Source: a bacterium
GTDB taxonomy: Bacteria > Planctomycetota > UBA8108 > UBA1146
DNA length: 64,000 nucleotides
Reading direction: 5' to 3'
NCBI GenBank assembly: GCA_029976805.1
Contig: JAPOLY010000002.1
Coordinates: forward strand, 23,502-87,501
A program made the translations under genes and the position numbers. This document shows positions 4,514 through 43,609 of the stretch, in pieces. The notes beneath the pieces were generated by a model. It saw only the letters and a list, made by a program, of their open reading frames with translations, was not told the DNA's origin and did not search any database. The first letter of the stretch is position 1. Every line of letters starts with the position of its first letter.

Positions 4514-4603
4514 GTTGAACCCCTCCGAGATCCCAATAACCGTCAGGTTCAAGGATATCACCGGGGCTAAAATTTCCGCTTCAGGAAATCGCGATTATCA
4601 AAT

Positions 4604-6859: not shown

Positions 6860-7078
6860 TTCAGCACTCCTGCATCCCACTTGAGACGTATCCCTGAGGG
6901 AGTATCATCTACTCTGGTCGATGTTTATTGATCTATTCAAACGGCAGTCATCGTATCCCAAGATGTGTTTTCAAGGGAGTGATTCCGAACGTCGATTTGT
7001 TGACAAAGTGCCCGCCTTAACGCGCCGAGTCGCTCAGCGACCAGCAGTGATGCTGTCAGGGAAAGAGGACTCTTGATC

Positions 7079-21577: not shown

Positions 21578-21714
21578 GGGGTTGAATTTACCCTTGGGAA
21601 GGCCCAGAGGCCATCAGTACGGACCGTCTTGACGGGGAACTTTTCAGCCTGCAAGTTCAGACCTTGTCAGTTTCTGACACTTCAGGCGTAAATCTGGAGG
21701 AGGGAGGAAGCCCC

Positions 21715-27635: not shown

Positions 27636-27636
27636 A

Positions 27637-29682
27637 TCAGGGACAAGATGGGTGTTCAGTGCATGAGAAGTGAGCCTCAACAGGCGCAATTCCACACTCG
27701 GGGAATGGCGAAGGTGGATTGGCTCCACCAGAGAACTCATAGAAGAGCAGGTAGAGGCCGTCAGAAATATCCAGGAATCCATCCCCATTGGCATCGGCGG
27801 CTTCTTCACAGTTGATGATCACGAGATCACCGAAAACCCTTGAGATCAGCAGCACCGCGTCTGCCAGCCGGACTCCGGGGGTGCCATCTGCATCTCCACG
27901 GATAAAAGTCGGTTCGCATTCATCCACATACCCATTGCCATTCGTGTTCAACAGCGGATCACTCAAATCGCAATCATCCGGATGCAGGTTACCGTTGCAA
28001 TCCTCGACCACTCCGGAAAGGACTGCACAAACATCGGGCAGACCATCCTGATCGCAATCGTCTTCACAGATATCAGGGAGGCCATTCCCATCGCAGTCTG
28101 ACAACTGACCATTACTGATCTCACACTCATCCAGCTGGCCATTCTGATCGCAATCCTCTGAAGGATTGAGAACTTCACAGACGTCCGGTTCTCCATTTTG
28201 ATTGCAATCTTCCTGACAAATGTCGGGAATCAAATCCTCATTACAGTCGGAGACCAAACCCAAAGTCGTTGCGCATTCATCCGGGACACCGTCTGCATCA
28301 CAATCCGCTACTCCGCCTGAAAGTGTGGAACAACTATCGGGAATGAGGTCTCCGTCACAATCCGCAACAAGGCCCTGGGCGATGGCACAGGAATCCGGGA
28401 TACCGTCGAGATCACAATCGATTGTTGCACCTGTGACGATTTCACAGGCATCCGGTTCACCGTCCCCATTGCAATCCTGATCACCACTGACCGAGTACTT
28501 CACGCCCCCTCCCAGAACAGCGGCACTCGAATCGAGGGGGGCTCCTGCGAAGATCATTCCCTTGTCAATGGCAAGAGCGGTTCCCAGAAAAGACCCTGCG
28601 TATCCAGTCATGTCACTCTCGTGAACCCACTCTTGAAGATAGCGGTAGATCCGTACTCTTCCGGTTGGCATTGCCTCGTTGCCCATGTCCATCGGCGATC
28701 CCACTGCCAATAGATTTCCGTCGATGGCAAGGGTCGCCCCAAATCCAGTTCCAGAAGAACCACTGTCCGGTGTCAGGAAAGGCTGAAGAATCCAGATCGA
28801 GTTTGACCGGCGATAGGAAACTACCTGTCCGGCAAAGGGCCCGGAAAAACTGGAATAGGGGCTACCTATGAAAGCGTAATCATCCAGGAGACTGACAGAG
28901 GTTCCAAATCTGTCCCCCGGCTGTGCCACATTGTTGCCAAATCTGGCCGATTCAAACCAACCGTCAGGACCGCCTGAATAAAGAATGGCAATTCCGCTAT
29001 CGATCCCTGAAGCATCTCTGCCCGGAGATCCGACCAACAGTTGCCCGAGACTGTCTACCGATATGGAGGTTCCGAAGTTATCGCCTTCAACTCTGTCTTC
29101 GGCCAACAGTCTCTCTTCGAATTGCCATTGGCCCATGGAGTTCAGCCGCCAGACTGTGACGCAGCCTGCTTCACCGACATCGGTCGTGTATGTGGGACTT
29201 CCGACAACCAGTACACCGCCTTTGAGATCGAGACTGCTTCCAAAGCCATCCCCATCGACTCCCTGGCTGTCGATGATAATCGAGTGGTAAACCCACCCAA
29301 AACGGTCCCTCTTCCACATCTCGATGTATCCGAGCCCGATTGCACCGATGGCGAGCCAGTTTTCATCCGCTGCCAAAGAAGATCCGTACTCAGCCCCGGA
29401 CAATCCACTGAAGACATGCTCCAACTGGTATCCGGAAACCCCTCTCCTGAATGAACGGACACTTCCACTAAGGAAGCCTCCGCCATCGTCACCGATGGCA
29501 CCGACAAAAACCCGGCCTCCACTGACGGCAACAGAGCGCCCAACCCGGTCCCCGGGATTAATCCCAAAGACCTGCAAATCATCTTCCACGCACTGCGACC
29601 AGAGCTGAGAACCCTGAAGCATTGCAATCAGGCAGAGGATCTGAATAGACAACCGGAAAATCCGGGAAAATTGGGGTGGCAT
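27637..29682 (-). CDS. Secreted FG-GAP (integrin-alpha-like) repeat protein with a Cys-rich DCxxxGxPDxC repeat array and a dockerin-like C-terminus
   Basis: Signal peptide. Repeated GDxFGxSVA...G.P motifs (residues ~40-395). 10-11 DC(D/N)xxGxPDxC units. FIRGDADGTPGVRLADA...DANGDGFLDISDGLYLL...PFP. Confidence 0.75.
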   Translation of the reverse strand: MPPQFSRIFRLSIQILCLIAMLQGSQLWSQCVEDDLQVFGINPGDRVGRSVAVSGGRVFVGAIGDDGGGFLSGSVRSFRRGVSGYQLEHVFSGLSGAEYGSSLAADENWLAIGAIGLGYIEMWKRDRFGWVYHSIIIDSQGVDGDGFGSSLDLKGGVLVVGSPTYTTDVGEAGCVTVWRLNSMGQWQFEERLLAEDRVEGDNFGTSISVDSLGQLLVGSPGRDASGIDSGIAILYSGGPDGWFESARFGNNVAQPGDRFGTSVSLLDDYAFIGSPYSSFSGPFAGQVVSYRRSNSIWILQPFLTPDSGSSGTGFGATLAIDGNLLAVGSPMDMGNEAMPTGRVRIYRYLQEWVHESDMTGYAGSFLGTALAIDKGMIFAGAPLDSSAAVLGGGVKYSVSGDQDCNGDGEPDACEIVTGATIDCDLDGIPDSCAIAQGLVADCDGDLIPDSCSTLSGGVADCDADGVPDECATTLGLVSDCNEDLIPDICQEDCNQNGEPDVCEVLNPSEDCDQNGQLDECEISNGQLSDCDGNGLPDICEDDCDQDGLPDVCAVLSGVVEDCNGNLHPDDCDLSDPLLNTNGNGYVDECEPTFIRGDADGTPGVRLADAVLLISRVFGDLVIINCEEAADANGDGFLDISDGLYLLFYEFSGGANPPSPFPECGIAPVEAHFSCTEHPSCP
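27913..28482 (-). repeat. In-frame array of 10-11 degenerate repeats encoding DC(D/N)xxG(x)PDxC units, mostly at 19-codon period
   Basis: Units DCNGDGEPDAC, DCDLDGIPDSC, DCDGDLIPDSC, DCDADGVPDEC, DCNEDLIPDIC, DCNQNGEPDVC, DCDQNGQLDEC, DCDGNGLPDIC, DCDQDGLPDVC and DCNGNLHPDDC, read from the translation. Confidence 0.8.
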
Positions 29683-29764
29683 TTCGGGACCATTCTCACA
29701 GGGGATGAACGCGCTCAGAGGGCGTACTGCAGGAACACTGTGAGATCAATTCAAGCCGTCCTTC

Positions 29765-29801
29765 CGGAAGTGTCAATCCCGGAAGGACGGCCCAATCACG
29801 T
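29765..29801 (-). terminator. Strong hairpin after the amidohydrolase operon (probable terminator or RNA-stability element)
   Basis: GCCGTCCTTCCGG-11 nt-CCGGAAGGACGGC: perfect 13-bp stem 20 nt downstream of the stop at 29821. The tail on the minus strand is only partly T-rich. Confidence 0.55.
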
Positions 29802-29820
29802 GAGTCATAAAAGGCAGAGA

Positions 29821-31227
29821 CTAGCCTTTAAGGGGATCTCCCAATCGGCGTGGCCAGTGATCATCCGGCGGCGGAGCGTCGAGATCACCATCGGGTCTGA
29901 TGTGATCCAGAATGCCCTCTTCCTCCTTGTCGTACTGAATCTTGCCGTTGACGAAAGCCCAACGAACCAGAGTCATGTAACTGAGCAGGTCTCCGTCGGT
30001 AATGATGAAGTCGGCATCTTTTCCCACCTCAAGGGAGCCCACACGATCAGCCACACCCAGCAATCTCGCAGGTTCGATGGTGATCGCTTCGATGGCCACC
30101 TGTTCCGGCAACCCACCACGCACTGCAAAGGCCGCCTCCAGGGGAAGGTGAGACAAATCCCGCCCGGCAAGTCCCCAGAGAGCAATCCCTGTGTTTTGAG
30201 GAATGATGACCAACGGCACACCGGCATCGTGGAGCAACTTGGCATTCTCAATGCTCGATCCACTTTCACGATTGAGGTCCTCATTGGCATTCACGCGGGC
30301 GCGAGGTGAAATGACGGCACTGGCTCCGGCTCTCGAAAGAACCCCGGGATCGATCCATCCCTCTTCGGCTAATTCAAAGACGATTTCAAAACCGTATTTG
30401 CGGGCCAACGCAGAATACTCGCGAATCTCCGCCATCGAACGTGAACGAACCAGAGCCTGGCTTTGTCCGGTGAGAAGACTGCGAACCGTGGCGTAGATCC
30501 CCTTGATCCATTTGTCATCGGGGGCTTTCGCTTCCGGATCTTTCTTTTTCTCCTCAGCGTGGCGCTCCAACGCTCTCAGGTGCTCTTGAACCCGATCCAT
30601 CGCACGGCGCAGTTCACTGCGGCCTCTGGGATTCCTGTAGCTGTAATTGATACTGCTGAAGGATTTGGGGCGGATCGTCAGATCCTCAAGGCTTCCATGA
30701 ACCAGCTTGGTGACTCTCGAGCCATTCCAGGTAGCAGTAATACCGGCGGCCAGACCCATCGTCGTGTCGAGATCAAAGGGGTCCTGGCTCTTCTCCGCTT
30801 CACCGGAGCCCACCAGTCCGGAAGAACGAAACGCCACCAGACCCGGATAGACATGGTGCCCCGTCGCGTCGACCACCTCTGCCCCCTCGGGGCCATCCAC
30901 AGGACCGGCAACGATCTGGTAGATCTTGCCGTTCTTGCAGATCAGGGTTCCGTTCCGGTGTGTTCCACCTGTCACGGTGTGAAGGGTGGCCCCGCGAATG
31001 ACAAGGTATTCATCCTCTGAGTCCGCGGCGACGATCTCCTTCTTCTCCGGCTCCGGTTCCGGTGCGGGAGGAGGAGCCTGGCGACGGCGTCCACGACGAC
31101 GGCGCGGTGGATCCTGTGCTTCCGAGATGCTCTCGCTCAGACTATAGCCACCCGGAATCACCGGCATGTCCGTGAAGACGATGACAAAAGCCAACAGAGC
31201 GGTGATGATTCGAATATTCTTCAACAT
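29821..31227 (-). CDS. Secreted amidohydrolase-fold protein, degenerate metal site (operon position 8 of 8)
   Basis: Signal anchor MLKNIRIITALLAFVIVF. PGLVAFRSSG replaces the HxH motif. C-terminal family motif GSLEVGKDADFIITDGD. TGATG overlap with the upstream gene. Confidence 0.75.
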   Translation of the reverse strand: MLKNIRIITALLAFVIVFTDMPVIPGGYSLSESISEAQDPPRRRRGRRRQAPPPAPEPEPEKKEIVAADSEDEYLVIRGATLHTVTGGTHRNGTLICKNGKIYQIVAGPVDGPEGAEVVDATGHHVYPGLVAFRSSGLVGSGEAEKSQDPFDLDTTMGLAAGITATWNGSRVTKLVHGSLEDLTIRPKSFSSINYSYRNPRGRSELRRAMDRVQEHLRALERHAEEKKKDPEAKAPDDKWIKGIYATVRSLLTGQSQALVRSRSMAEIREYSALARKYGFEIVFELAEEGWIDPGVLSRAGASAVISPRARVNANEDLNRESGSSIENAKLLHDAGVPLVIIPQNTGIALWGLAGRDLSHLPLEAAFAVRGGLPEQVAIEAITIEPARLLGVADRVGSLEVGKDADFIITDGDLLSYMTLVRWAFVNGKIQYDKEEEGILDHIRPDGDLDAPPPDDHWPRRLGDPLKG

Positions 31228-32546
31228 CAGCGATCCTCCCGATCCCAGACCACTTCACCGGAGATCATGGTCTTCATGACTTTCACCCCCGGGTCGAGTA
31301 ACGATCCATTGAGAAGAATCAGGTGGGCCGCTTTGCCCTCCTCGATCGTCCCCATTTGATCGCCCAGTCCCAGAAACTCCGCCGGAGCAGAAGTCAGTGA
31401 GGCGATCGCATCCTTTTCAGACATGCCATATCGAACCTGCTCCGCCAGATATCCCGGCAGCTCTCTCATGCCACTGGCACTGTCTGCACGCGGCAGGCTG
31501 ATCACAGAACATCCTCCCCGTGAAAGTGCCGCAGGGACATGGTAGCGATAGTAGGTATCGGGCAGAACACTCATTCCGGGGGGGATCATGACCGTCGCCT
31601 TGCGTTCGATCAGTTCATCGACCACTTCATGGAACGCACCGTTGCGGGCTCCCGGCAAGACGAAAATCGATGCTGGATCTCGATCCTCCAGCTCCTTGAC
31701 GCTCGACATGGCCGCATCCACGTGCAGCATTGAACCGGGAGATGAGATCGAGATCACCAACGGCATGGCGGAAGATTTCTCTTCGAGAATATCCACCAAC
31801 GGAACCAGAGCCGGATTCATCGGCGGAGCCTTGAACTCTTTGGGACCTTCGTCTTTTTTGGACTTGTCCCCCTTCTCGGCTGCAGCCTTGTCCTTGTCTC
31901 CTTTTTCCGCTTCCTTCTTCTTCGCCTCTTCAGCGGCCTTCTTGGCCTCTTCCTGCTTTTTGTCCCACTCTTCGCGGGCCTTCTTCACCTTTTCGATTTC
32001 CTTGCGGGCACCGTCAAAGGCCTGAGACACGGTTCGGTAGAGTGAAGTAGAGCCTGTCACCGTCAGCGGCAGATAGACCGACTCCTTGAGGATCCGGTTT
32101 TCTGCTTCAGGTGCGGTGTGCACGATGACTGCCTGACCATGAAATCCGGTTCCGGCAGGAACAAAGGCGGCAGCAACAAATCCCGCCTCAAGGAAAGATT
32201 CCCAGTCCATTTCCCCATCGACCCAGCGATTGAGAACCGTCTGGTCACAGCCCACACCGCTGACTCTTCCACCAACCAGCCCCTGGCTCGTTCGCGAAAG
32301 GACCAGACCCGCCATCAGCGTCTGATTCCGGGCCTCAATAATTTTGGCGTTGTCAGGAATCTCGAGCTGGTTGCCAATCAGGGTGATCTTGCCATCTTCG
32401 ATGACGACTTCACCGGGACTGATCGTCTCGCCGGTACCCGTGATCACGGAGCCTGCACGAATGACCGTAACCCGGTCCCCCGCCAGCAGATCCGTGGAGA
32501 CCCCCGCCAACAGGGCAAGGATCCAGGTCCATTTAATGATTCTCAT
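31227..32546 (-). CDS. Secreted amidohydrolase-fold protein, degenerate metal site (position 7 of 8)
   Basis: Signal peptide MRIIKWTWILALLAGVSTDLLAG. AGLVLSRTSQG replaces HxH. Lys/Glu-rich insert KKAREEWDKKQEEAKKAAEEAKKKEAEKGDKDK. C-terminal GTIEEGKAAHLILLNG. Confidence 0.75.
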   Translation of the reverse strand: MRIIKWTWILALLAGVSTDLLAGDRVTVIRAGSVITGTGETISPGEVVIEDGKITLIGNQLEIPDNAKIIEARNQTLMAGLVLSRTSQGLVGGRVSGVGCDQTVLNRWVDGEMDWESFLEAGFVAAAFVPAGTGFHGQAVIVHTAPEAENRILKESVYLPLTVTGSTSLYRTVSQAFDGARKEIEKVKKAREEWDKKQEEAKKAAEEAKKKEAEKGDKDKAAAEKGDKSKKDEGPKEFKAPPMNPALVPLVDILEEKSSAMPLVISISSPGSMLHVDAAMSSVKELEDRDPASIFVLPGARNGAFHEVVDELIERKATVMIPPGMSVLPDTYYRYHVPAALSRGGCSVISLPRADSASGMRELPGYLAEQVRYGMSEKDAIASLTSAPAEFLGLGDQMGTIEEGKAAHLILLNGSLLDPGVKVMKTMISGEVVWDREDR

Positions 32547-33787
32547 TAGAAAACCCTCTTCTCACTGGCTTCGTAGGTGACTTCACCATCGATCACCGTC
32601 ATCTCGCAGGATGAACGGGGGTCGATCGGATCACCGGTCCAAAGGCAAAAATCTGCGTCGAGGCCCACAGTGATGCTGCCGAGACGATGGTCCATCATCA
32701 GTGCTTCCGCGGGGATTTTAGTGATCCCCTTCAGCGCCTCGTAGGGTTTCCAGCCGTAGTAGCAGGCCATGCTCGCCTGATAGGCCAACTCTTCCTGCGG
32801 CACCACCGGAGAGTCAGTATTGATACCCAGCTTGCGGACACCCCCCTGCCACCAGCGGGCAGCATTGCCCATCAGTCGTCTCTGGGTGCGATCGTAGTGG
32901 AGCTGTCTCGGTCCATTGATGGTGTAAATCGACTCGTCCGCGTTGACGAGCGGAGCGACTTTCCAGGCGTCGAAAGTGGAGTGATCCAGCACCGTGCGGA
33001 TGTTGAATTCTCCTGCAACCATTTTGACTGTGGTCATCAGCACCTGGTAAATCTGAGTGTGAACCGAAGCCACCGTTTCACGACGGAACAGCGGTCGAAA
33101 CTCTTCCCAGTTCAGATTGAAGGCGGGCTCGACCTCGAGGCGACCTTCTTCCCACTCGGTTCTGGCCAAGTGGTAATCCCGCGCTTTGCGCAGGGTCTGA
33201 CGGGTGTTGAAGTTCATGAAGGAACGTCCCACACCGTAGAAGTAACGCTCCGGGTTTCCTGCCTGGGCGATCTTCAGGGATCCGGGAGCCTTGATGACGG
33301 ATTCCGCAACAGTGCCCTCGGAAGTCTTCATGATCGTACCGAAGCCGGACATGTTGTTTCCGCTACCCGGGATCGTCAGCACCGTCGTCACACCACCGGC
33401 GCGAGCGCGAATCATCTCCGGGTTGTCGGGGACGATGGATTCCAGCGTGCGCAATCCGGGGTTTGTCAGATAGACGTAATCATGAAGGTCTGGAGAGCCG
33501 CCTCCGGTGTGGTTGTGACACTCGACAAAGCCGGGAACCAGCCACAGGTTCTTGTGCTCAAAGACCTTTGCTCCGGGGGGGATCATGATCTCTTTCGATT
33601 TCCCCACCGCCGTGATCTTACCATTTTCGACGATCACGGTTGCGTTGTTGATCACACGCTCTTCGGTATCAAAGGTCACCACCTTGCCGACCTTGAATGC
33701 CAGGGTCTCGGCGGTTGCATCCGCAGAAAGACATACGAGGAACAGGAAGGCCAGACTGAAAATCCATTGATTGGCAGAGATCCTCAT
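32546..33787 (-). CDS. Secreted amidohydrolase (COG1228-like), the only paralog with an intact HxH motif (position 6 of 8)
   Basis: Signal peptide. PGFVECHNHTGG (HxH), later His residues (ASVHTQ, VLDHST), GINTDSPV (Asp) and C-terminal GSITVGLDADFCLWTGDP. Confidence 0.85.
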   Translation of the reverse strand: MRISANQWIFSLAFLFLVCLSADATAETLAFKVGKVVTFDTEERVINNATVIVENGKITAVGKSKEIMIPPGAKVFEHKNLWLVPGFVECHNHTGGGSPDLHDYVYLTNPGLRTLESIVPDNPEMIRARAGGVTTVLTIPGSGNNMSGFGTIMKTSEGTVAESVIKAPGSLKIAQAGNPERYFYGVGRSFMNFNTRQTLRKARDYHLARTEWEEGRLEVEPAFNLNWEEFRPLFRRETVASVHTQIYQVLMTTVKMVAGEFNIRTVLDHSTFDAWKVAPLVNADESIYTINGPRQLHYDRTQRRLMGNAARWWQGGVRKLGINTDSPVVPQEELAYQASMACYYGWKPYEALKGITKIPAEALMMDHRLGSITVGLDADFCLWTGDPIDPRSSCEMTVIDGEVTYEASEKRVF

Positions 33788-36507
33788 CGTTGGACCTCCT
33801 CTCCATTGACAAATACCCTCTCGAGACGGCTACCCCCTTCGAAAGGATGTCCCTTCCAAATGAGCAGGTCTGCTTCCATGCCGACACCGATCTGACCGAT
33901 TCGGTCATGAGCACCGACCACCTTGGCCGCTCCACGGGTCAGCGCATCCAGCGCAGCATCCGCAGCCATTCCATTGGCCACTTCTCCTCGGACCCTGAAG
34001 GGCAATCTGCGGGCACCATCTGCGGCGGAACTTCTGAAGCCAACTGTCACTCCTGATCGTCCCAACCAGGTGGAGGGCATGTAGGTGGTGTCTGCAGCTT
34101 CGAAACTCATCTGATCCGGCAGCAACACGGGGATTTTCTTCTCCAGAAGAAGATCCTTGTGAAAGCGCATGAACTGATCGAGTTGAACGGCAAAAGGAAT
34201 CTCCTTGCCGGTGAAGTAATCGACCACGGACGGCAGGGTGTTGAAGCCTCTCACCGATACGAGAACCGGAATCTTCTTTTCCAGCACCGAACGGATCGGT
34301 TCCAGAGTCGCCCGGACTCTGGGCGGATTCGGTCGACCGTCTTCGTCCTGCTTCTTTCGACGGGTGACCTTGAAGGTTTTCGCCTCCTTGCTGGTCCGGG
34401 TCCCGGATAGATCCGCAGAGAAGGCCAGGATCGAAATCTTGCCCTCCATCGAATCTTCACCAATGAGCTCCGCTTCGATCCGCGGGGTATCCGGAAGATC
34501 TCCCTCGGGAACCTCGATGGTTCCCCGCAGAGTCGTCCCCTCAAGGGTGCCGACCATGCGCACCGGAACGGGCGGTGCAGGCTCGACCAGTCGACCCTCC
34601 CATTCTGATCCGGTCAGGGTGATCGAAAGAGTGGCGCTTTCAGGCTCGGGAATCGGACCACCACTGATGGTCATCTCCCAGATTCCGGTCAGGGGATCAT
34701 CCAGCTTTTCTTCCGGAACCTCCTCGACCTCCTCCTGCTTGCTCTTCTCTATCTTCTCCCCGGCTTCTTTTTTCTTCTTCCACTCGGCGAGATCTTTTTC
34801 GTATTTCTCCCATGACTCGAGGTACTTCTGCCCCTGATCAAAGAGACGACGAATCGCCCCGAATCCGCTATCAGAGATTTCCAGGAGAAGCATCGAATAG
34901 TGCTCGTCGATCCGCGCCTCACGGCTGTCGCCGGAAGTTTTGGCAAGAACCCCGACCCCTGCACCACGCTGCAGTCGCTTCGGTGCCAGCAACTGACTGG
35001 TCACTCCAGCCAGAGCCACGCTGTGCTCACGGTCGCCGGTCACACCCAGCGTTCGATGCAATCGATCTCCCGTTCCCATCGTGGCGGAGTCCCCCTCCAG
35101 TCCCAGATGGCCGTAACAATCGATAAATCCCGGGGCAAGAAAACTACCGGGTCCGGCGTCGATCACCTGACAATGCGGCGGGTGAGGAACACGGTGACCG
35201 ACCGCGGTAATCATACCGTTCTCGATCAGGACCTGAGCATCACTCAGCTGTTCCTCAGGAGAGATCCAGATCGTCTCCGCGCTGATCACTTTGGTGTGCT
35301 GCTCTTCCGGCTGCCACGCTCTCAGACCCTCGACAAAAACCTCGAGGGGACGGGCGTGAATCTTCCAGGGTGCATCATTCCAGACCACGATATCGGCGTC
35401 TGCTCCGGGATGGAGGTGTCCCACCCGGTCTGCAACTCCGAGGATGCGAGCTGCATTGTGAGTCACCCATGGAATCACCGATTCCGGGGAATCCATCGCA
35501 GCGGCCGCTTCACTCATCGCCCAACCCAATTGGGAAAGGTCATCACCGGGAGGGGCCAGCGCCCATGCGGGACTGTCCTTCAGGTGCGGAAAACCGTGGG
35601 AGCGAAGGACGCCTCCGTTGGGAATATCCCCCTGAGGTCCTCTCATGCGCAGGACCACCGGAACACCTGCAGCGGCCAGATCGGCTTCCATGGCGCCCAC
35701 CATCGCATCCGCCACAAGATATCCCTGACGATCCTCGGACTGCATCATCTGAAGCATGCCCTGGAGATCGGGAGCGGCATCCACAGAGATGCGCATGGGA
35801 ACACCGGTGCCCCAGACCTTGGCCAGCTCACCGTGAGCGAGAGAGTCTTTTCCCGCCATATCGATCGCCTCACGCAAGGCCAGAAGCCGATCGATTCGGC
35901 TTGCGGGTCTTTGTGGCGCGGGTGGTTCAATCTGAACATCACTGGAAGCGGGGAAGGGAATCTCCAGAAGAGGATCGGGATTGTCGACCCGGTCCCTGAG
36001 GGAGATCGCCAGATCGGATGAATCGACCAAAACCCTGCCAGAAGGAGCACCCTCCAGCTTCACCACCGCCCCCTGACCCGACAGCAGTCGGTGTTCACCG
36101 GGATTGACATGAATCGTGGTCACGCCTGTTTCCAGAAGCGGGCGATGATCTCCGTAGGTGTTGTATCCATCAACGGCCCGGAATGCGGCGGAAATCGACT
36201 CGTCACCACGGTGAGGACCGACAACCGCACTGGAGGCCGCAACAAGCCCGGGTGTCACATAGGCGTCGGGCCAATGCAACAGCGGAAGATCACCCACCAA
36301 ACCGGCAGAGATCTGGGCCCATGGACCGCTCTCCACGACACGGCCATCTCGAACAACGATGGCTCCATCTACCAGCGATTGCTGCCCGTTATGCAAATGC
36401 CCGGCGCGAAGAACAAAATCTCCGCCTGCCCGGACCTCTGCCGCTGGGAGCAACACCAGTATCAGGAGCAGTAACCCGGTCAGCCGGGTCCACTTGCCAG
36501 TCTGCAT
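33784..36507 (-). CDS. Secreted double amidohydrolase-fold protein (two tandem domains), both metal sites degenerate (position 5 of 8)
   Basis: Start MQTGKWTRLTGLLLLILVLLPAAEVRA at 36507, one nt after the upstream TAG stop. Domain 1 has PGLVAASSAV and GHLHPGADADIVVWND. Domain 2 has PGFIDCYGHLG (Tyr in place of the first His) and GQIGVGMEADLLIWKG. A charged insert lies between them. The track ORF extends to 36582. Confidence 0.75.
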   Translation of the reverse strand: MQTGKWTRLTGLLLLILVLLPAAEVRAGGDFVLRAGHLHNGQQSLVDGAIVVRDGRVVESGPWAQISAGLVGDLPLLHWPDAYVTPGLVAASSAVVGPHRGDESISAAFRAVDGYNTYGDHRPLLETGVTTIHVNPGEHRLLSGQGAVVKLEGAPSGRVLVDSSDLAISLRDRVDNPDPLLEIPFPASSDVQIEPPAPQRPASRIDRLLALREAIDMAGKDSLAHGELAKVWGTGVPMRISVDAAPDLQGMLQMMQSEDRQGYLVADAMVGAMEADLAAAGVPVVLRMRGPQGDIPNGGVLRSHGFPHLKDSPAWALAPPGDDLSQLGWAMSEAAAAMDSPESVIPWVTHNAARILGVADRVGHLHPGADADIVVWNDAPWKIHARPLEVFVEGLRAWQPEEQHTKVISAETIWISPEEQLSDAQVLIENGMITAVGHRVPHPPHCQVIDAGPGSFLAPGFIDCYGHLGLEGDSATMGTGDRLHRTLGVTGDREHSVALAGVTSQLLAPKRLQRGAGVGVLAKTSGDSREARIDEHYSMLLLEISDSGFGAIRRLFDQGQKYLESWEKYEKDLAEWKKKKEAGEKIEKSKQEEVEEVPEEKLDDPLTGIWEMTISGGPIPEPESATLSITLTGSEWEGRLVEPAPPVPVRMVGTLEGTTLRGTIEVPEGDLPDTPRIEAELIGEDSMEGKISILAFSADLSGTRTSKEAKTFKVTRRKKQDEDGRPNPPRVRATLEPIRSVLEKKIPVLVSVRGFNTLPSVVDYFTGKEIPFAVQLDQFMRFHKDLLLEKKIPVLLPDQMSFEAADTTYMPSTWLGRSGVTVGFRSSAADGARRLPFRVRGEVANGMAADAALDALTRGAAKVVGAHDRIGQIGVGMEADLLIWKGHPFEGGSRLERVFVNGEEVQR

Positions 36508-36508
36508 C

Positions 36509-38050
36509 CTAGAGTCCTCCCTTGCTTGCCGAATCAGTTTCGGGAGCGGGGCTGGGCGCGGGTTTCTCTTCGCTCTTGCCATCCTTCTTCAGGGGCTCGG
36601 CAGCTTCCTCGGTCTCTTCTGACCCTTTGGCTCCAGCTCCCTCTTCAGTCGAACCCTCTTCTCCCTGGGCTTCCTCGCCGGAAGCTCCCTCGGAAGTTTC
36701 TTCCATCTCCTTGGATTCGTCAGAACTCTCCTCTTCCTCCATTTCGGGGAAGAGACGCTGCAGACGGGCATCCATCTCTCGGTCGTAGGCGAGGATTCCT
36801 TCGATCCAGACCTTCTGAACCCATGAGGTCATCTCCAGAGGGTTTCCAGTCCACATGACAATATTGGCGACCTTGCCCTTGTCGATGGATCCGTATTGCT
36901 CTGCGACGCCACAGATCTCGGCAGCACCCAGAGTGATCGTGCGCAATGCCTGCTCCTGCGACATACCGTTACGAACGAGACGCGCAGCTTGATAGGTCAA
37001 AAGGTTTTCCGGCATGACATTGCTGCGACCCGCCTGCAGGGCGAAACGAATCCTGTTCTGACGCATCACCTCGGGAATAAAGGTCTCCTCCACCTCTCCG
37101 GTGATGGCATCTCTTTCGCGGTGGATCAGATCACTGTCGAGAACCACTGGCACCTTGGCTGCAGCAATCTCAGCCGCAGCAAGGTGAGCGTCCCCGGAGA
37201 GCACGAGAACCGCTCTTCCGGTCCAGCCCCTGTCAGCAATCATCGCGATAGCAGGAGCCACATCCGTCGCAGCACCGCAATGGATCCAGGCCCCCAGCTT
37301 TCCTCCATCGAGATAAGCCAGATGACGATGGCGGTCGTCGAGGTCCTCTTCACGGATCATCGACTTCCCTTTCTCACGCGCTTCGGCGGGAGGCAAGGAA
37401 TCCAGATCGTCACTGTTTTCTGCTTCCTGTTCGTAGCGAGTTTCAGCAAGGTTTTCATGCCAGCGATCAAACTCGCTGAAGACCCCTCGCAGTTCTGCAC
37501 GCTGGCGAAGACGGTCGTAACCCCCTTTGGGAGACACGGACATCTTGAGAGCGATCCCCGGCAAACGGGTCATCTCATCGGGAGAGAGACCAATCGGATG
37601 CACGATCCGGCTCACCCCGCCGACCACGCAGTTGTTGCCCTGCATGACGTGAACCGTGGAGATGCCGTTTCTCAGGGAGTTTTCAAAGAAGAAACGGGAT
37701 GGGTCGATGGCGTCGTAGACATCGACAAAGGGAGCCACCGACAGATTCTCGTTGGGAATGTCCAATCCTGCGGGATTGTGGGCATCCACCAATCCCGGTG
37801 CCAGGATCATTCCGCTGCAATCCACTTCCATGGCATCGTAGGGAACTGCCATATCTGCTCCGCCCACCGCCTGGATGATGCCATTCTCGATCAGAATGGT
37901 TCCATCGACGACGGGTGCACCGGAGACAGTCAGGATCTTGCCGCCTGTCAGGGCCACCTTGGGAGATGACTGGGCTTCTGCGACTCCCTGCTGGAAAAAC
38001 AGCAGAAGAGTGATTCCCAGAGTCAGGAATTTGTGAGTCAGGGTCGACAT
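36509..38050 (-). CDS. Secreted amidohydrolase-fold protein, partially degenerate metal site, acidic C-terminal tail (position 4 of 8)
   Basis: Signal peptide MSTLTHKFLTLGITLLLFFQQGVAEA. PGLVDAHNPAG (a single His). GSIDKGKVANIVMWTGNP. About 80-aa Glu/Ser/Gly-rich tail. Confidence 0.75.
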   Translation of the reverse strand: MSTLTHKFLTLGITLLLFFQQGVAEAQSSPKVALTGGKILTVSGAPVVDGTILIENGIIQAVGGADMAVPYDAMEVDCSGMILAPGLVDAHNPAGLDIPNENLSVAPFVDVYDAIDPSRFFFENSLRNGISTVHVMQGNNCVVGGVSRIVHPIGLSPDEMTRLPGIALKMSVSPKGGYDRLRQRAELRGVFSEFDRWHENLAETRYEQEAENSDDLDSLPPAEAREKGKSMIREEDLDDRHRHLAYLDGGKLGAWIHCGAATDVAPAIAMIADRGWTGRAVLVLSGDAHLAAAEIAAAKVPVVLDSDLIHRERDAITGEVEETFIPEVMRQNRIRFALQAGRSNVMPENLLTYQAARLVRNGMSQEQALRTITLGAAEICGVAEQYGSIDKGKVANIVMWTGNPLEMTSWVQKVWIEGILAYDREMDARLQRLFPEMEEEESSDESKEMEETSEGASGEEAQGEEGSTEEGAGAKGSEETEEAAEPLKKDGKSEEKPAPSPAPETDSASKGGL

Positions 38051-38101
38051 CGATTACCTCGGTTTCAATGCTTCCTCCGCAGTGCGGGTGGAAGGTTTAG
38101 C

Positions 38102-39631
38102 TCAATTTCTCTCGTATGAAAGTACGCCGTCCAGCATGACCTTTTCGATGCGGGTCAAGGCTGAGAAAGGGGAACCGTTCCAGCAAACCAGGTCTGCTCT
38201 GCGTCCCGGCTCAAGGGTTCCCACCTCTTTTTCGATTCCCAGCAATTGGGCCGGGTACTGAGTCACCATTCGCAACGCCTCCGCCGGATCGACTCCATAT
38301 CGAATCGCCAGCATCGCCTGACGGGCGAGACCCTCTTCACCGCGCAGATCCTGCGCACTGAGAGCCATCGGAATACCGGCGTCAGAAAGATCGCGAACCG
38401 TGTGAAGTCTTCGATTGCGCATTTCACGCGAGCCCGCAGTGATTCCGCTGGGCTGATCGAAGATGGGGCCGAAGACCACGGGTGTTTCTGTTTGCTTGAG
38501 GAGGTCGACCCTTTTCCACGCTTCCACCGGATCTTCCAGTGTGAAGGAAATGCCAAACTCATTGGCAAAGCGGAAGGCAGTTTCGATGTCACTGCCAGTT
38601 CTGGCCTGAATTCTCATCGGTACATCTCCGGCGAGGACTCCCTGCAAAACCCGGGAAGCCTCCGCAGAGGTTTTATCGGCACCGGTCGGCTCAAGGCCCC
38701 GGGCACGAAGAAGGGCATCGTAGAATGCTCTGCGGAAAACCCAGCCCACTCCCATACGGGAATCGGGGCGACGGGTGTAGATGGAAACAAAGCCTCGGAA
38801 AGGACTGCGATTCCGGGTGCCGTAGCGATAAGCATCGCTGCCGACCACCGTTTTGACAGAACCGGTTCCCATGAATCGATCGGTGATCGGACCGCCGGTG
38901 CGCATCGTGGCTCCACGGGATCCGATCACGGCAGATCCATCGGGACTGATGTAAACCGTGGTCACTCCCTCCTGGAGCAGTCGATCAAAATCTTTCGACC
39001 CGTGATCGATACCGTCCATGATCTCGAATTGGGGAACCACCTCGCTCGACTGGTCCGTGATCAGCCCGCTCTCGCTGGGAACCCCGGCAGCCATCGCTTC
39101 GCGCTTCAGCTCAGCGAGTTCCTCTTCTTCCTCTTCCTCATCATGAGCGTGAGCATGGGGGTCATGCTCCGGGTATCCACAGAAGAGACAGCTCTCGTCA
39201 TGACGGTGAAGCGTCTGGGCAGGACAGACCGTTCCGCAGGGACAGACATCGCCGCCGTGGTACTGGTCTTCCATCCCCAATGCTCGGAGAATCGACAGTC
39301 GCGGATCCTCCGTGGGATAAAGCATGGCATCCATGACGTCGATCTTGGCATTCGCATCGATCAGCCCGGGGGTCACTTCAGCAACCTCCATGACCTCCAG
39401 TCCTTCCGGAACGGCTCCACCGGAAGTGACACTCTCGATTCGTCCTTCACGGACGACGATGACCGCATTGTCGACGGTCTGGCCATTGCCGAGGTGAGCC
39501 TTGCCCGCCTTCACCACATAGGAGTTGATCGTTTTCACGGCCTCCTCTTCGGCAAGAAGTGGCGAGAAACAGAATCCGGTGACCAGAGCGAAGACCCACA
39601 GCATCAGGGGGTACTTGGATGTGTTGTTCAT
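38102..39631 (-). CDS. Secreted amidohydrolase-fold protein, degenerate metal site, Cys/His-rich insertion (position 3 of 8)
   Basis: Signal peptide MNNTSKYPLMLWVFALVTGFCFSPLLA. PGLIDANAKID replaces HxH. Insert GGDVCPCGTVCPAQTLHRHDESCLFCGYPEHDPHAHAHDEEEEEEE. GTLEPGRRADLVCWNGSP. Confidence 0.75.
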   Translation of the reverse strand: MNNTSKYPLMLWVFALVTGFCFSPLLAEEEAVKTINSYVVKAGKAHLGNGQTVDNAVIVVREGRIESVTSGGAVPEGLEVMEVAEVTPGLIDANAKIDVMDAMLYPTEDPRLSILRALGMEDQYHGGDVCPCGTVCPAQTLHRHDESCLFCGYPEHDPHAHAHDEEEEEEELAELKREAMAAGVPSESGLITDQSSEVVPQFEIMDGIDHGSKDFDRLLQEGVTTVYISPDGSAVIGSRGATMRTGGPITDRFMGTGSVKTVVGSDAYRYGTRNRSPFRGFVSIYTRRPDSRMGVGWVFRRAFYDALLRARGLEPTGADKTSAEASRVLQGVLAGDVPMRIQARTGSDIETAFRFANEFGISFTLEDPVEAWKRVDLLKQTETPVVFGPIFDQPSGITAGSREMRNRRLHTVRDLSDAGIPMALSAQDLRGEEGLARQAMLAIRYGVDPAEALRMVTQYPAQLLGIEKEVGTLEPGRRADLVCWNGSPFSALTRIEKVMLDGVLSYERN

Positions 39632-40821
39632 TTTCTGACGCTCTCCAATTCATTCACTTTTCCGGGTTCGGCAACCCGCATTCCCTGCCCCCCACGCCAG
39701 ACGTGAATCACGCTGGAAGCAGTGTCGAGAGGATCTCCAGAGAAAAGAACCAGGTCCGCTCTCTTGCCTGCGGAAACCTCTCCCGTTTCCAACGCTCCGG
39801 AGACTTTCGCCGGATTGCTGAAGAGGGCTCTGCGGGCAGCGTTGGCATCCATTCCTGCGGAAACTGCCATGGCAGCACTTCCACGGAGGTGATCGGCGGG
39901 ACCTGCCGGAAGTCCACCGGCAAAACTCAATTCCACCCCTTGCTTCGAAGCCCTTACGGCCATCATGAGATGGGCACGGCTTCCACCATCCAACAGAGGT
40001 CCGACGACCATATGCACCGGCTTGGGAAGATCTTTCACGAGATTCAAAGGGGAACGGCCATCTCCACCGGTGTGAATGAAGACCGGAATCGCATCGGCTG
40101 ACCAGGGCAATGCGAGTGCCTGGCGCAAATCGATTCCCTCCGCCACGTACAGGAGGCCCGGATTTTTCAGAGCCTCAGGGCCGGTCTGCATCCAATCTCT
40201 CCAGATGGAGAGCAATGCGGTTCGACTGGTCGGAACCCGGTTCGCAGAAAGAACGGAGTCACCCAATGCCAGCATCATTTTTCCGGATCCCAATCGGGTG
40301 GCCGAAAAATCGCTGTGGCAAAGGAAGGTCGCACTCTTTCCATTGACGACTCCGAGGGGCTGCGCCACCAGAGTGGTGTAGAGCACCCCGTGGTGAGCGG
40401 CGACATCCAGCCACGGATCCGAGGAGTCGAAACTGCTCCCGGCGTCGAGATGATCGTCGACCAGAACGGTTCCGGAGCGCAAGGATCCGGGTTTGCCACG
40501 GGTACCCAGCGCACCCATGAGATCGTGCAATCCCGGGGTCAGGACGGATCCTTCAGGGGCTCGGTGAATATGGTCAAACGCCTTCTCATCGACGGTGGAA
40601 CTGGGCACCAGGGCCTGAATCTTGCCGTCATTGCCGACGATGACCGCCCAGTCCCCCTCCAGATTTCCATCGGGGAGAAGAACCTGTGCACCGGTGATCG
40701 CCACTCCGCTGCCACCGGCGTCTGCCGGGATGGAAAGCGTCAGGGTGAAGAGCAGTGCAAGCCCGAACAGGAACAACCTGTTTCCCGAGTTCGGTTTTTG
40801 ATGGTTGGAGCGATTCAACAT
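39628..40821 (-). CDS. Secreted amidohydrolase-fold protein, degenerate metal site (position 2 of 8)
   Basis: Start MLNRSNHQKP at 40821, overlapping the upstream stop (TAATG). PGLHDLMGALG replaces HxH. GEVSAGKRADLVLFSGDP. ATGA overlap with the next gene. The track ORF extends to 40929. Confidence 0.7.
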   Translation of the reverse strand: MLNRSNHQKPNSGNRLFLFGLALLFTLTLSIPADAGGSGVAITGAQVLLPDGNLEGDWAVIVGNDGKIQALVPSSTVDEKAFDHIHRAPEGSVLTPGLHDLMGALGTRGKPGSLRSGTVLVDDHLDAGSSFDSSDPWLDVAAHHGVLYTTLVAQPLGVVNGKSATFLCHSDFSATRLGSGKMMLALGDSVLSANRVPTSRTALLSIWRDWMQTGPEALKNPGLLYVAEGIDLRQALALPWSADAIPVFIHTGGDGRSPLNLVKDLPKPVHMVVGPLLDGGSRAHLMMAVRASKQGVELSFAGGLPAGPADHLRGSAAMAVSAGMDANAARRALFSNPAKVSGALETGEVSAGKRADLVLFSGDPLDTASSVIHVWRGGQGMRVAEPGKVNELESVRK

Positions 40822-42134
40822 TAGAAGCGCCCTCCTCTCGCCGCAGAGGCTTCTTGCCAGACCACTTCCCCGTCGATGATCACCTTTACAGGGCGAGCTG
40901 CCGGCTGGGTCGCCGGGTTGGCACTCCACAGAACAATGTGATTCTGTCCGGGTCTAAGGGTATCCCGACGACTGCGAAGACCTCTGAGGTTCGTCGACTG
41001 GGCACTCGTGAGCGCAGCCTCCCCCGTCATCTTGCGGGTCATTCGCCAGAGGCCTTCTCCTGAGCCTCCACTGCCGACCACCCAATCCATTTCATGCTCC
41101 TCCAGGAGGGCAGCGAGATTGGAAGATCTTCGGGGAGTCGTACTCAGAACTCCAGGACCGGAGACCGCCATCGACGTCGCTGGCTGGTCGATAATGAAGG
41201 AAAGGTCATCCAGTTTTTTCAAGTCATCGATCACCAGAGCCGCTTCATCCGCCCCATGAATGATCGCGTCCAACTGGAACATTTGAATCAACTCGCAGGC
41301 ATTCAAAAGATCTGCAGATCGCCGGGCGGTGATCAAAACCGGAATCTTGTGGTCCAGTGCACGAAGGAGGATATCACTGTCCTCATCGAGATCGGGACGA
41401 CGGGGCTTTTCGGGTGCCTTCTTCTCCTCGTCGTCCTTTTTGCCATCTTCGGAAGACTTTTCGCCCTCCCCTTCACCGTCCTTGGCCTGTTCCTCGACCC
41501 ACTTCTTCAGCTCCTCGAGGTACTCCTCCAGGTCTGATTCATAACTGTCGAGGCTGTCGCGACGGTCACGGGCATTGTTGAACTGCTCGACGATTTTGTC
41601 GAAAGCACGAATGCGCGCGGAAGGGGCTCCCGATGAAAGATTGATGCAAAGGGCGGCCTCTTCCTCGATCAGGACGCCATGCCCGCCACCTTCCGCCTCT
41701 TCCAGTGAAACCCAGCAGGATCTGCCAGAGATACCGCTGCCGCGAACCGGAACCAGATGGACCCGGGTCACGCCTGACGAGAGGACCATTTCGATATCAT
41801 CCTTGGAAAAGCGATCGAAGCCGTCCCAACTCCACTGCTTGGCCTCTCCCGATCCGCCCACTGGAAGGGTGAGAACGGAAGCGTGATCCACGAGGCCTGC
41901 TGTGGCAAAAAGCCCCTGGGCCGGGATTTTTTTAGACATGAGTGGCACGTCTGCAGTCTGGGAGATTTCGGCGATCCTGCCGCCACGGATCATGATCGTC
42001 AGATCCTCGAGAGTCCCGCCACGCGTCGGGGCGCTGACGCCCTCCAGAACAACCGGACGTTGAAACAACTGACCCTCTACCCAACCCGGGTAGAACAGAA
42101 GGATCAGCATCAGCCACACTCTGGGTGAAGACAT
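40821..42134 (-). CDS. Secreted amidohydrolase-fold protein, degenerate metal site (position 1 of 8)
   Basis: Probable start MSSPRVWLMLILLFYPGWVEG at 42134. AGLVDHASVL replaces HxH. Charged insert EELKKWVEEQAKDGEGEGEKSSEDGKKDDEEKKAPEK. The track ORF extends to 42239. Confidence 0.65.
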   Translation of the reverse strand: MSSPRVWLMLILLFYPGWVEGQLFQRPVVLEGVSAPTRGGTLEDLTIMIRGGRIAEISQTADVPLMSKKIPAQGLFATAGLVDHASVLTLPVGGSGEAKQWSWDGFDRFSKDDIEMVLSSGVTRVHLVPVRGSGISGRSCWVSLEEAEGGGHGVLIEEEAALCINLSSGAPSARIRAFDKIVEQFNNARDRRDSLDSYESDLEEYLEELKKWVEEQAKDGEGEGEKSSEDGKKDDEEKKAPEKPRRPDLDEDSDILLRALDHKIPVLITARRSADLLNACELIQMFQLDAIIHGADEAALVIDDLKKLDDLSFIIDQPATSMAVSGPGVLSTTPRRSSNLAALLEEHEMDWVVGSGGSGEGLWRMTRKMTGEAALTSAQSTNLRGLRSRRDTLRPGQNHIVLWSANPATQPAARPVKVIIDGEVVWQEASAARGGRF

Positions 42135-42682
42135 ATGCTTGGCTCTTTCCTCATAAGCCGTTGCCCTCGCAACGACTCGGCGCTCATTCACACTGATTCG
42201 ATCAAAGTCATGTGATGCCTGCGGTTGACAAGCCTGCACCCGGACACAGCCGTTGAGCAGACTCGTTATTACTTGGGGCAGACTTCATTCCTGCAGATGG
42301 TGAAACTCCCTCATAACAGGGAACAGATCCTCCACCTGTAGAAGCCGGTACACAGACCGGTATCCCTCTCGTCAAACAATCAGGGCTGATCGCGCGGGGA
42401 TTCCCCCCAGTTCGCTGAATACCCCTGCTGAAATCGTCTATCTCTATTCCCCCACCTCTGGTGAGCTCCAAAGGGATTGGAGAGCTCCAAAGGTATCCCC
42501 GCGATTCATGTCCCCGAATTTCCCGCAGGTCGAGGTACAGAATAACCACCAGAATCCACCCATGAAACCTGTAACGTCCGCCGATCTGCTCGCATCGGAG
42601 CAATTCCGGGTGCAAACTCGGACTGATGTGACAGAGCAGCGAAAGCCCCTGAAACCGCTTTCCAGACTGTCAGCCAGAAAGG

Positions 42683-43609
42683 ATGCAACCGATGAATGAC
42701 GGATATTCCTCCCCGCTCCGGGGAACCGGGCTCTCTGAAGCTCACAGAACCCGTATTGGCCTCGCTGAAATGCTTCGCGGTGGCGTCATCATGGACGTGA
42801 CCACAGCCGAGGAGGCTCATGTGGCCCAAGAGGCCGGAGCAGTCGCGGTGATGGCTCTCGAAAGAGTGCCCTCCGACATCCGCAGGGATGGTGGTGTCGC
42901 CCGCATGTCCCCGGTCGAAAAAGTGGAAGAGATCCAAAAGGTCTGCTCGATTCCGGTGATGGCGAAAGCACGCATTGGGCATTTTGTTGAAGCCGAGATT
43001 CTGGAATCCCTCGAAGTGGATTTCATCGACGAATCGGAAGTGCTGACCCCCGCAGATCACGCCTACCACATCGATAAAAATCGTTTCAACGTTCCCTTCG
43101 TCTGTGGAGCCACCAATCTGGGTGAAGCCCTGCGTCGAATCGGCGAAGGTGCGGCCATGTTGCGCACCAAGGGCGAAGCAGGAACCGGTGATATCACCGA
43201 GGCCGTGCGTCACCTGCGGGCGATTCACTCCGAAATCCGCCGTCTCACCACTGCTCCTGAGGAAGAGTGGATGACTCTGGCCAAAGATCACGGTGCTCCC
43301 TATTCCCTCGTATGCCAGGTGGCAAAGGAAGGCCGACTCCCGGTTCCCAACTTTGCGGCCGGTGGTATTGCCACTCCTGCTGACGCAGCGCTGGCAATGC
43401 GACTCGGTGCGGAAGCGGTCTTCGTCGGTTCAGGAATCTTCAAATCGAAGGACCCCCTGCGCACAGCCAAGGCCATCGTTCATGCCACCGCCCACTTTGA
43501 AGATGCGGCTGAACTCGCCAACGCCTCCCGTAACCTGGGAGAAGCGATGCCGGGAATCGATGCCAGCAAGCTGCCGGAAGCGGAGCGTCTTCAGGATCGC
43601 GGCTGGTAA
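42683..43609 (+). CDS. pdxS: Pyridoxal 5'-phosphate synthase lyase subunit
   Basis: Highly conserved PdxS sequence ([66 protein letters not shown]). Confidence 0.95.

Follow-up and report, generated by a model that had tools for sequence, protein, structure and literature searches.

Why would a bacterium export eight paralogous proteins of a hydrolase fold from a single operon and leave only one of them equipped for catalysis? This question is raised by a gene block on the minus strand at positions 29821-42134 of the window, a 64,000-nucleotide (nt) stretch of contig JAPOLY010000002.1 (assembly GCA_029976805.1) from a planctomycete of the UBA1146 lineage. The original prediction read the block as one catalytic subunit plus seven pseudo-enzyme paralogues in an arrangement that it could not match to a described system. 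The analysis presented here establishes that the block holds one intact and eight degenerate active sites, that its genes are under purifying selection in an invariant order with conserved coupling, that all products bear export signals, and that they belong to the subfamily of Protein Data Bank (PDB) structure 3OOQ. We give even chances to the explanation that the products assemble after export into a hetero-oligomeric hydrolase in which a single subunit is active, the one encoded by the third gene from the downstream end of the block (g3).

The list of open reading frames (ORFs) for this region contains eight successive minus-strand ORFs, encoding nine modules, and nothing else substantial; the genes lie exactly where they had been predicted. 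Three start codons were refined to an ATG that follows a GGAGG-like stretch and precedes the hydrophobic segment. In the order of transcription, the genes and the two halves of g4 are as follows.

40821-42134, minus strand: g8, 437 amino acids (aa), the first gene of the block; degenerate, and the most divergent paralogue
39628-40821, minus strand: g7, 397 aa, ATG start refined to 40821; degenerate
38102-39631, minus strand: g6, 509 aa; degenerate; carries a Cys/His-rich insert and, after it, an acidic run
36509-38050, minus strand: g5, 513 aa; degenerate, with an acidic low-complexity C-terminal tail
33784-36507, minus strand: g4, 907 aa; two fused modules, both degenerate
35308-36507, minus strand: g4N, the N-terminal module of g4 including the signal peptide, residues 1-400; start refined
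33784-35307, minus strand: g4C, the C-terminal module of g4, residues 401-907
32546-33787, minus strand: g3, 413 aa; predicted catalytic subunit
31227-32546, minus strand: g2, 439 aa; degenerate, with a Lys/Glu-rich low-complexity insert
29821-31227, minus strand: g1, 468 aa, the last gene of the block; degenerate

With the refined starts, all seven junctions are overlaps or gaps of 1-51 nt, as had been described: TAATG at g8-g7, ATGA at g7-g6, 51 nt at g6-g5, 1 nt at g5-g4, ATGA at g4-g3, TAATG at g3-g2 and TGATG at g2-g1. A GGAGG-like stretch, resembling a Shine-Dalgarno sequence, lies upstream of all eight starts.

Sequence comparison assigns all nine modules to the amidohydrolase superfamily and, within it, to a 3OOQ-like subfamily. 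An orthologue alignment was built for each gene and compared with that of g3 by hhalign, with g4 split in two, and every module aligned with g3 over its full length at a probability of 99.7-100% (E 1e-26 to 1e-39); even the most divergent did so, g8 at 99.7% (E 6.5e-26, full length), g7 at 99.8% (E 1.9e-28) and g4N at 99.9%. Against the Pfam families Amidohydro_1 (PF01979) and Amidohydro_3 (PF07969), tested at their curated thresholds, g1-g6 exceeded the gathering score of Amidohydro_1 (39.8-61.6 bits vs. 25), the match lying mainly in their N- and C-terminal parts; g7 fell below threshold (17.7 and 24.3 bits) and g8 had no Pfam match at all. Pfam being insufficient by itself for these two, their membership follows from the profile-profile result. 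The closest solved structure is 3OOQ, a structural-genomics entry for an amidohydrolase of Thermotoga maritima MSB8, which g3 matched over residues 49-404 at E 4.1e-42 (phmmer; next PDB match 1.5e-10) and which the g5 profile matched over its full length at E 5.8e-55 (next match 1.3e-14). An AlphaFold2 (AF2) model of g4 built from 62 sequences (mean predicted local confidence, pLDDT, 85.5; predicted template modelling score, pTM, 0.74) contains two amidohydrolase-like modules, and its top Foldseek match was again 3OOQ (E 5.5e-20; template modelling score 0.73, target-normalised), with the next match at 2.6e-9 and other amidohydrolases following. The fold, a (beta/alpha)8 barrel with a composite beta-sandwich, is thus modelled for g4 and assigned to the other modules by full-length homology. 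In the model the two halves of g4 may pack in a defined way, as a pTM of 0.74 would be expected to reflect.

The names under which such proteins are deposited say little about them. The best score against NF051886 (Xaa-Pro dipeptidase/Cc2672-type carboxypeptidase) was 68 bits, by g3, vs. a cut-off of 500, and the best against TIGR01224 (imidazolonepropionase HutI) was 55.5 bits, by g4, vs. a cut-off of 298; because these scores lie far under the family cut-offs, the public labels "imidazolonepropionase-like" and "adenine deaminase" are unsupported. Nor did NCBIfam, Pfam, PADLOC, database protein names or the full-text literature searched yield a description of an operon that encodes eight exported paralogues, only one of them live, and this bears out the earlier impression that the arrangement is not a described system: the databases give generic names, and the literature searched describes none. 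A reading as a defence system was rejected, as no PADLOC-DB model matched any of the eight proteins at E <= 0.01.

To locate the active site in each module, six ligand positions were considered, namely HxH on strand 1, Lys/Glu on strand 4, His on strand 5, His on strand 6 and Asp on strand 8; the 3OOQ and g3 positions were mapped onto every module through the profile alignments, and the residues were counted over the orthologues. In g3, residues H91, H93, K172, H243, H269 and D325 align with the ligands of 3OOQ, and each is found in 39-41 of the 41 orthologues. Their codons, placed by translation, are the following.

33509-33517, minus strand: HxH of g3 (H91-N-H93)
33272-33274, minus strand: K172 of g3
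33059-33061, minus strand: H243 of g3
32981-32983, minus strand: H269 of g3
32813-32815, minus strand: D325 of g3

At the HxH position g3 reads ECHNH, and the other modules read AFRS (g1, within PGLVAFRSS), LSRT (g2, AGLVLSRTS), AASS (g4N, PGLVAASSA), CYGH (g4C, PGFIDCYGH), AHNP (g5), ANAK (g6, PGLIDANAK), LMGA (g7, PGLHDLMGA) and HASV (g8, AGLVDHASV), exactly as originally listed for all nine. The PG(L/F)(V/I)(D/E) hallmark that had been named for this region holds approximately: g2 and g8 have AG in place of PG, and g1, g2 and g4N have no acidic residue. None of the six ligand positions is retained in g1, g4N, g7 or g8. Among the remaining modules, g2 keeps only the strand-8 Asp (D355, in 37 of 41 orthologues), g4C only the second His of HxH (H72, in 39 of 40) and g6 only the Lys, while g5 keeps H91, K169 and H241 and lacks the second His of HxH along with the ligands on strand 6 (His) and strand 8 (Asp). 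The replacing residues are themselves conserved, with Arg at the first-His position in g1 (29 of 41 orthologues) and g2 (32 of 41), and with Asn and Gln in g6 (33 of 35 each).

A site might instead have moved within the fold, and all H, D, E, K and C residues conserved at >= 90% were therefore listed for each module. No His reached this level in g6, g7 or g8, and the two that did so in g4N lie away from the barrel site; no alternative conserved His/Asp/Cys cluster appeared in g4N, g7 or g8, or in g6 outside its insert. In g1 the conserved His residues (H83, H125, H360 and H442) are mostly outside the barrel ligand positions, H83 and H125 preceding the strand-1 motif and H442 standing at the C-terminus. 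Columns conserved at >= 90% make up 40% of g3 vs. 10-25% of the other modules. Intact ligands at shifted positions in most paralogues, which would have undone the original prediction, were thus not seen, and its claim that only the 413-aa protein keeps the metal motif is correct and extends to the whole six-ligand set. As the sole module with a complete set of binuclear-metal ligands, g3 is the predicted catalytic subunit, and ligand mapping yields one catalytically equipped module and, by the same criterion, eight degenerate modules in the seven other proteins, in agreement with the proposed seven pseudo-enzymes.

The block is neither recent nor peculiar to this genome. Its g3 is 100% identical to the g3 of a contig (CAJXMG010000002.1) from a marine metagenome-assembled genome (MAG), and an exact-sequence look-up of g3 returned no record. 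A genome scan with g3 found 40 loci, nearly all labelled Planctomycetota; a scan with the g5 orthologue alignment gave 263 matching stretches and one with a divergent g5 gave 121, of which the best 80 of each were examined. The hosts in these loci are Planctomycetota MAGs (labelled Phycisphaerae, Pirellulaceae, Planctomycetaceae and Isosphaeraceae), with a few odd labels; MAGs were the only hosts, and no cultured one occurred among the loci of the g3 scan and the best 80 of each g5 scan. Genes were assigned by tblastn and hidden Markov models (HMMs), and the order g8-g7-g6-g5-g4(N+C)-g3-g2-g1 on a single strand held throughout. After deduplication there were 112 loci, 78 of them complete and 34 contiguous parts cut by the end of the contig or locus, with none rearranged; the synteny that the original prediction proposed to look for is therefore present in related genomes. 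A g8 orthologue takes the first position in all complete loci, and the g4N-g4C fusion is present in every locus that holds g4. The sole shortened block lies on CP070666.1 (labelled Gemmatimonadota bin75; loci L030, L074 and L131) and consists of g5-g4-g3-g2-g1, i.e., six modules. There is room upstream of its g5, filled by unrelated ORFs without Pfam matches, and g6-g8 were sought immediately upstream and not found. In the window, g5 and g4 are 1 nt apart in different frames. At DCAA01000001.1 (UBA1146; L008:5801-10222, also L052 and L171) g5 and g4 were observed in one uninterrupted reading frame, which is either a natural three-module fusion or the product of a lost or mis-called stop.

Each window protein scored 516-849 bits against the HMM of its own orthologues and <= 180 bits against any other, and because the own-HMM scores are far above all others the nine modules represent nine old, separate orthologue groups. 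An HMM search of the window for a tenth paralogue, which would complete a decamer, found none. Among the most distant loci g3 retains 57-66% identity vs. 28-52% for the other genes. Selection was estimated by the Nei-Gojobori method as the ratio of non-synonymous to synonymous substitution rates (dN/dS), the window being compared with three close relatives at dS 0.12-0.36. The lowest values in the block were those of g3 (0.012-0.022), and the range across g1, g2, g4, g5, g6 and g8 was 0.02-0.085 (g1, 0.045-0.07; g2, 0.04-0.07; g5, 0.03-0.06; g6, 0.02-0.04; g8, 0.05-0.08), with g7 at 0.10-0.14; the unrelated downstream FG-GAP gene gave 0.045-0.053. The degenerate copies are thus under purifying selection and as constrained as ordinary genes, so that decay is excluded, and the recurrence of the block in 112 independent assemblies excludes chance.

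All eight N-termini carry a hydrophobic, Sec-like signal-type segment without a twin-arginine motif. The segment is kept in 29-41 of the 32-41 orthologues per gene, and the signal peptides originally read on all eight proteins are therefore matched by export-type segments that orthologues retain. The N-terminus of g1 stands out:

31003-31227, minus strand: residues 1-75 of g1, a hydrophobic segment followed by a charged, Pro-rich linker, DPPRRRRGRRRQAPPPAPEPEPEKKE

Because its hydrophobic segment has no obvious cleavage site and is followed by an Arg/Pro-rich linker of ~40 aa, this N-terminus is perhaps an anchor and not a cleaved signal, and g1 may be the membrane tether of the set.

Relatives with fewer modules place the block in a series. 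A scan with the 3OOQ sequence found genes of this type in Thermotogota and thermophilic Clostridia as single genes of ~390 aa without a signal peptide, which scored ~200 bits against the module profiles and matched none of them at the level of orthologues. The same scan reached a Verrucomicrobia MAG (L220:4438-8581) in which the gene for an exported two-module protein of ~930 aa, with a degenerate N half and the full site in its C half, overlaps at its stop codon the start of a gene for a degenerate 430-aa module that is likewise exported. When this 430-aa module was searched against a database, 2,357 clusters from Opitutae matched at E <= 1e-10, named only "imidazolonepropionase(-like)" or "amidohydrolase family protein," and five contexts (L221-L225) showed the same two-gene unit with unrelated flanks. 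By ligand mapping this three-module form, widespread in marine Opitutae, has one live and two dead modules. It shares with the planctomycete block exported 3OOQ-like modules, a two-module fusion, a single live module and generic annotation. The two differ in that the Opitutae form has three modules in two genes and the block nine in eight, and in that the fusion of the former has its catalytic module in the C half, where g4 has two dead halves; no one-to-one orthology between the modules emerged, the closest profiles being those of g1 and g5. The module numbers seen are 1, 3, 6 (one locus) and 9, of which 3, 6 and 9 are all multiples of three. One live module with dead paralogues, all of them exported, is a recurrent design in the Planctomycetota-Verrucomicrobia-Chlamydiae (PVC) group. 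A side observation concerns the single-module Opitutae protein P0327 (L221:5382-7046), residues 486-553 of which match the ExbD/TolR periplasmic domain at 24.9 bits vs. a gathering score of 25.4; similar C-terminal stretches occur in P0282, P0319 and P0323 and are absent from the window. This borderline match, which we do not use as evidence, possibly links the Opitutae relatives to Ton/Tol-type machinery.

The solved relatives are large oligomers. The 3OOQ crystal contains ten identical chains, and the structure is among the dihedral entries of a benchmark that admits only complexes of 10-30 chains; together these imply a D5 decamer. Many related PDB entries hold 8 chains, and ochratoxinase is a D4 homo-octamer (PMC11342369). 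By far the nearest solved relative of every module, 3OOQ has the ligand pattern of g3; it differs from the block in being a homo-oligomer of active subunits, of a type encoded by single-copy genes without a signal peptide, where the block comprises nine different exported modules with one active. The characterized COG1228-type peptide and N-acyl-amino-acid amidohydrolases, namely the Lys/Arg carboxypeptidase Cc2672 (3MTW), the Sgx9260-type dipeptidases (3FEQ/3N2C and 3BE7) and ochratoxinase, are the next-best matches within the superfamily, with a binuclear HxH/K/H/H/D site like that of g3 and large homo-oligomeric structures, and they differ from the block modules in aligning only over their N- and C-terminal parts. 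We know of no dead paralogous partners for any of them.

Several modules have features of their own. Two of these are inserts:

39143-39259, minus strand: Cys/His-rich insert of g6, residues 125-163, directly after the strand-1 position, HGGDVCPCGTVCPAQTLHRHDESCLFCGYPEHDPHAHAH
34390-34686, minus strand: beta-sandwich insert of g4C, residues 608-706, eight strands in the AF2 model

The g6 insert has the pattern CxC...C...H...CxxC...HxxH followed by a Glu run and sits where strand 1 would bear HxH. Its residues C130, C132, C136, H142, C148, C151, H156 and H159 are found in 21-29 of 35 orthologues and could form a structural metal or disulfide knot. The g4C insert matched no Pfam family and contains conserved DPxTGxW and GGP motifs (alignments of 59-62 sequences); g4C also has a long helix in the model (residues 549-581, 33 residues) with a low-complexity stretch after it. 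Lys/Glu-rich or acidic low-complexity stretches were observed inside g1, g2, g4C, g5, g6 and g8, and the acidic tail of g5 extends over ~80 aa.

Around the block, the following features of the window were noted.

42135-42682, no strand: intergenic region between g8 and the divergent pdxS; judged by position, the only promoter-capable site for the block in the window
27637-29682, minus strand: exported FG-GAP-repeat protein, FG-GAP/dockerin-like, 138 nt downstream of g1

A scan of 27000-43000 for a consensus sigma-70 promoter gave nothing above chance, and no intrinsic terminator stood out. When flanking ORFs were clustered over all loci, no neighbor, transporters included, accompanied the block throughout the distant lineages, and the genes of the block make up a self-contained unit. 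The FG-GAP gene, the upstream pdxS/pdxT and ketoacyl-synthase (KAS)-like gene, and UvrD-like helicases were considered as parts of the system and rejected, since they accompany it mainly in the marine clade of the window and elsewhere only as scattered exceptions (L021, L026 and L118). The FG-GAP gene itself, the product of which has a Cys/Asp-rich repeat region in its C-terminal half, occurs with the block in the marine clade and at two more distant loci (L026 and L118), and two further FG-GAP paralogues lie in the window at 2693-4594 (minus strand) and 7004-7945 (plus strand). At 21664-27635 (plus strand) two large adjoining ORFs (944 aa, then 1046 aa) share 4 nt; Pfam identifies the second as a UvrD-type helicase, a helicase is also found near the block at the distant L021, and the pair is possibly an AddAB/helicase-nuclease pair.

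We propose that one co-translated unit would deliver eight Sec-exported polypeptides, with nine 3OOQ-like modules, to the periplasm. Through duplication, the positions of a dihedral homo-oligomer would have been taken over by diverging paralogues, all but one of which would then have lost the active site. The exported proteins would form a hetero-oligomeric hydrolase with g3 as its single catalytic subunit, the binuclear metal center being held by H91, H93, a (carboxylated) K172, H243, H269 and D325. The remaining positions would be filled by g1, g2, g4N, g4C, g5, g6, g7 and g8, dead modules that would determine how the particle is built and probably affect how the substrate gains access or is recognized, and g1 may tether it to the membrane. 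By analogy with Cc2672, the Sgx9260-type dipeptidases and ochratoxinase, g3 would hydrolyze an amide bond of the C-terminal amino-acid or N-acyl-amino-acid type, a low-confidence guess made because these nearest characterized enzymes cleave C-terminal amino acids or N-acyl-amino acids. Physical assembly, stoichiometry, tether and substrate class are what we infer. The hetero-oligomer is backed by circumstantial evidence, namely the invariant gene order, the coupling, the conserved g4 fusion with its confident two-module model and the oligomeric relatives, to which the one-live/two-dead parallel in Opitutae and the lack of any other conserved partner gene may be added. A narrower version, in which the nine modules make up one pseudo-symmetric exported particle with a fixed, different paralogue at each position and a single active site, is tentative, and we would lean against it if pressed.

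Several considerations weigh against the hetero-oligomeric hydrolase. The assembly is a prediction from gene sequences; a 3OOQ-type decamer has ten positions and the block only nine modules, and module numbers of 3, 6 and 9 indicate a stoichiometry different from it; the six-module block of CP070666 means that the full set is not obligatory everywhere; among the scanned loci the block was seen in uncultured MAGs only; and the substrate proposal is weak because the function of 3OOQ is uncharacterized and scores lie far below the family cut-offs. The facts established here would fit equally well with a loose set of proteins serving one periplasmic process without a stable particle, in which g3 is a free enzyme and the dead modules use the old substrate pocket as ligand-binding, chaperone-like or sequestering proteins, for example by capturing different peptides or amides that are then passed to transporters or g3. 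Purifying selection on degenerate pockets, export signals and strict co-occurrence all fit such a set, as is the conservation of ligand-replacing residues within orthologue groups (Arg in g1 and g2; Asn and Gln in g6). However, a phylum-wide invariant order with stop/start overlaps is more typical of subunits made in a fixed ratio, two of the modules are permanently fused in g4, the solved relatives are all obligate large oligomers, and the neighborhood holds no conserved gene for a transporter or another partner; we regard this account as rather unlikely, if a serious contender.

The degenerate modules might also still be enzymes with a non-canonical or relocated apparatus, in which case the operon would encode a multi-step or multi-substrate hydrolytic pathway. 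The ligands left in g5 (H91/K169/H241), the four conserved His of g1 and the Cys/His-rich insert of g6 (residues in 21-29 of 35 orthologues) could be cited to this effect. Throughout the amidohydrolase superfamily the general base is the strand-8 Asp, yet it is absent from all dead modules but g2, which has no other ligand; the scarcity of conserved His in g6-g8 and g4N, the position of those of g1 mostly outside the barrel ligand sites, and the low share of conserved columns relative to g3 likewise speak against residual catalysis, and we consider it improbable. Little probability attaches as well to the block being a lattice, a scaffold or another structural part of the PVC-type envelope or periplasm, with the activity of g3 serving its own maturation or anchoring. 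The charged low-complexity inserts and tails of g1, g2, g4C, g5, g6 and g8, the possible tether in g1, the borderline ExbD/TolR-like domain of some Opitutae relatives and the restriction to PVC lineages in our scans would suit such a role, but the fact that g3 is the most constrained gene, with an invariant active site, speaks for catalysis as the purpose of the system, and the absence of the block from cultured Planctomycetota in the scans shows that it is no general envelope component. Finally, the loss of ligands, taken by itself, could suggest that the degenerate copies are decaying pseudogenes or an artifact of assembly or duplication. This is refuted by dN/dS of 0.02-0.14, by the own orthologue group of each copy and by intact ORFs of conserved length across the 112 independent assemblies, and its probability is practically nil.

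The components of the proposed hetero-oligomer have precedents. CRMP/DPYSL proteins, related to dihydropyrimidinase, are dead amidohydrolase-fold proteins that form homo- and hetero-tetramers, and an inactive dihydroorotase (PyrC') is needed to assemble the aspartate transcarbamoylase of Pseudomonas. CRMP structures were weak matches in PDB searches with the block proteins. In these cases, as in the block, ligands were lost while the fold was kept under purifying selection, theirs with a structural or partner role in an oligomer; they are however single, cytoplasmic dead paralogues, whereas the block has eight dead modules with one live, exported and in an invariant operon. Assemblies differentiated by paralogues include the beta ring of the eukaryotic 20S proteasome (three of seven subunits active), CCT and V-ATPase rings. 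They resemble the predicted particle in having many paralogues of fixed identity, most of them inactive, and in descending from a symmetric homo-oligomer family, and differ in that their fold and chemistry are unrelated and that the single particle of the block is a prediction. On the general model in which heteromers replace homomers after duplication, see PMC11066126 and PMC10888846. Dead amidohydrolase-fold subunits and paralogue-differentiated rings are thus precedented; it is for the combination of eight exported paralogues, one of them live, in one operon that the sources searched gave no description.

To our knowledge, the pseudoenzymes known to persist alongside active relatives as their partners are isolated examples. 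If our explanation is true, eight dead paralogues around one live exported enzyme, unrearranged across a phylum, would be an extreme case of this phenomenon, and if the products form a single particle it would be a bacterial periplasmic counterpart of the subunit differentiation of the proteasome or CCT. The series from one module (Thermotogota) to three (Opitutae), six (one locus) and nine (Planctomycetota) would then be a record of the particle's build-up. How homo-oligomers become obligate hetero-oligomers after duplication, through constructive neutral evolution or through adaptation, is a question on which the block bears, and it is testable because versions with 1, 3, 6 and 9 modules coexist in nature. 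Many proteins of marine PVC bacteria are also flagged, >2,300 clusters for one Opitutae module and hundreds for the Planctomycetota modules; the labels "imidazolonepropionase-like amidohydrolase" and "adenine deaminase" imply activities that most such proteins cannot have. The substrate of g3 may in turn matter for periplasmic nitrogen or peptide turnover in these abundant, uncultured marine bacteria.

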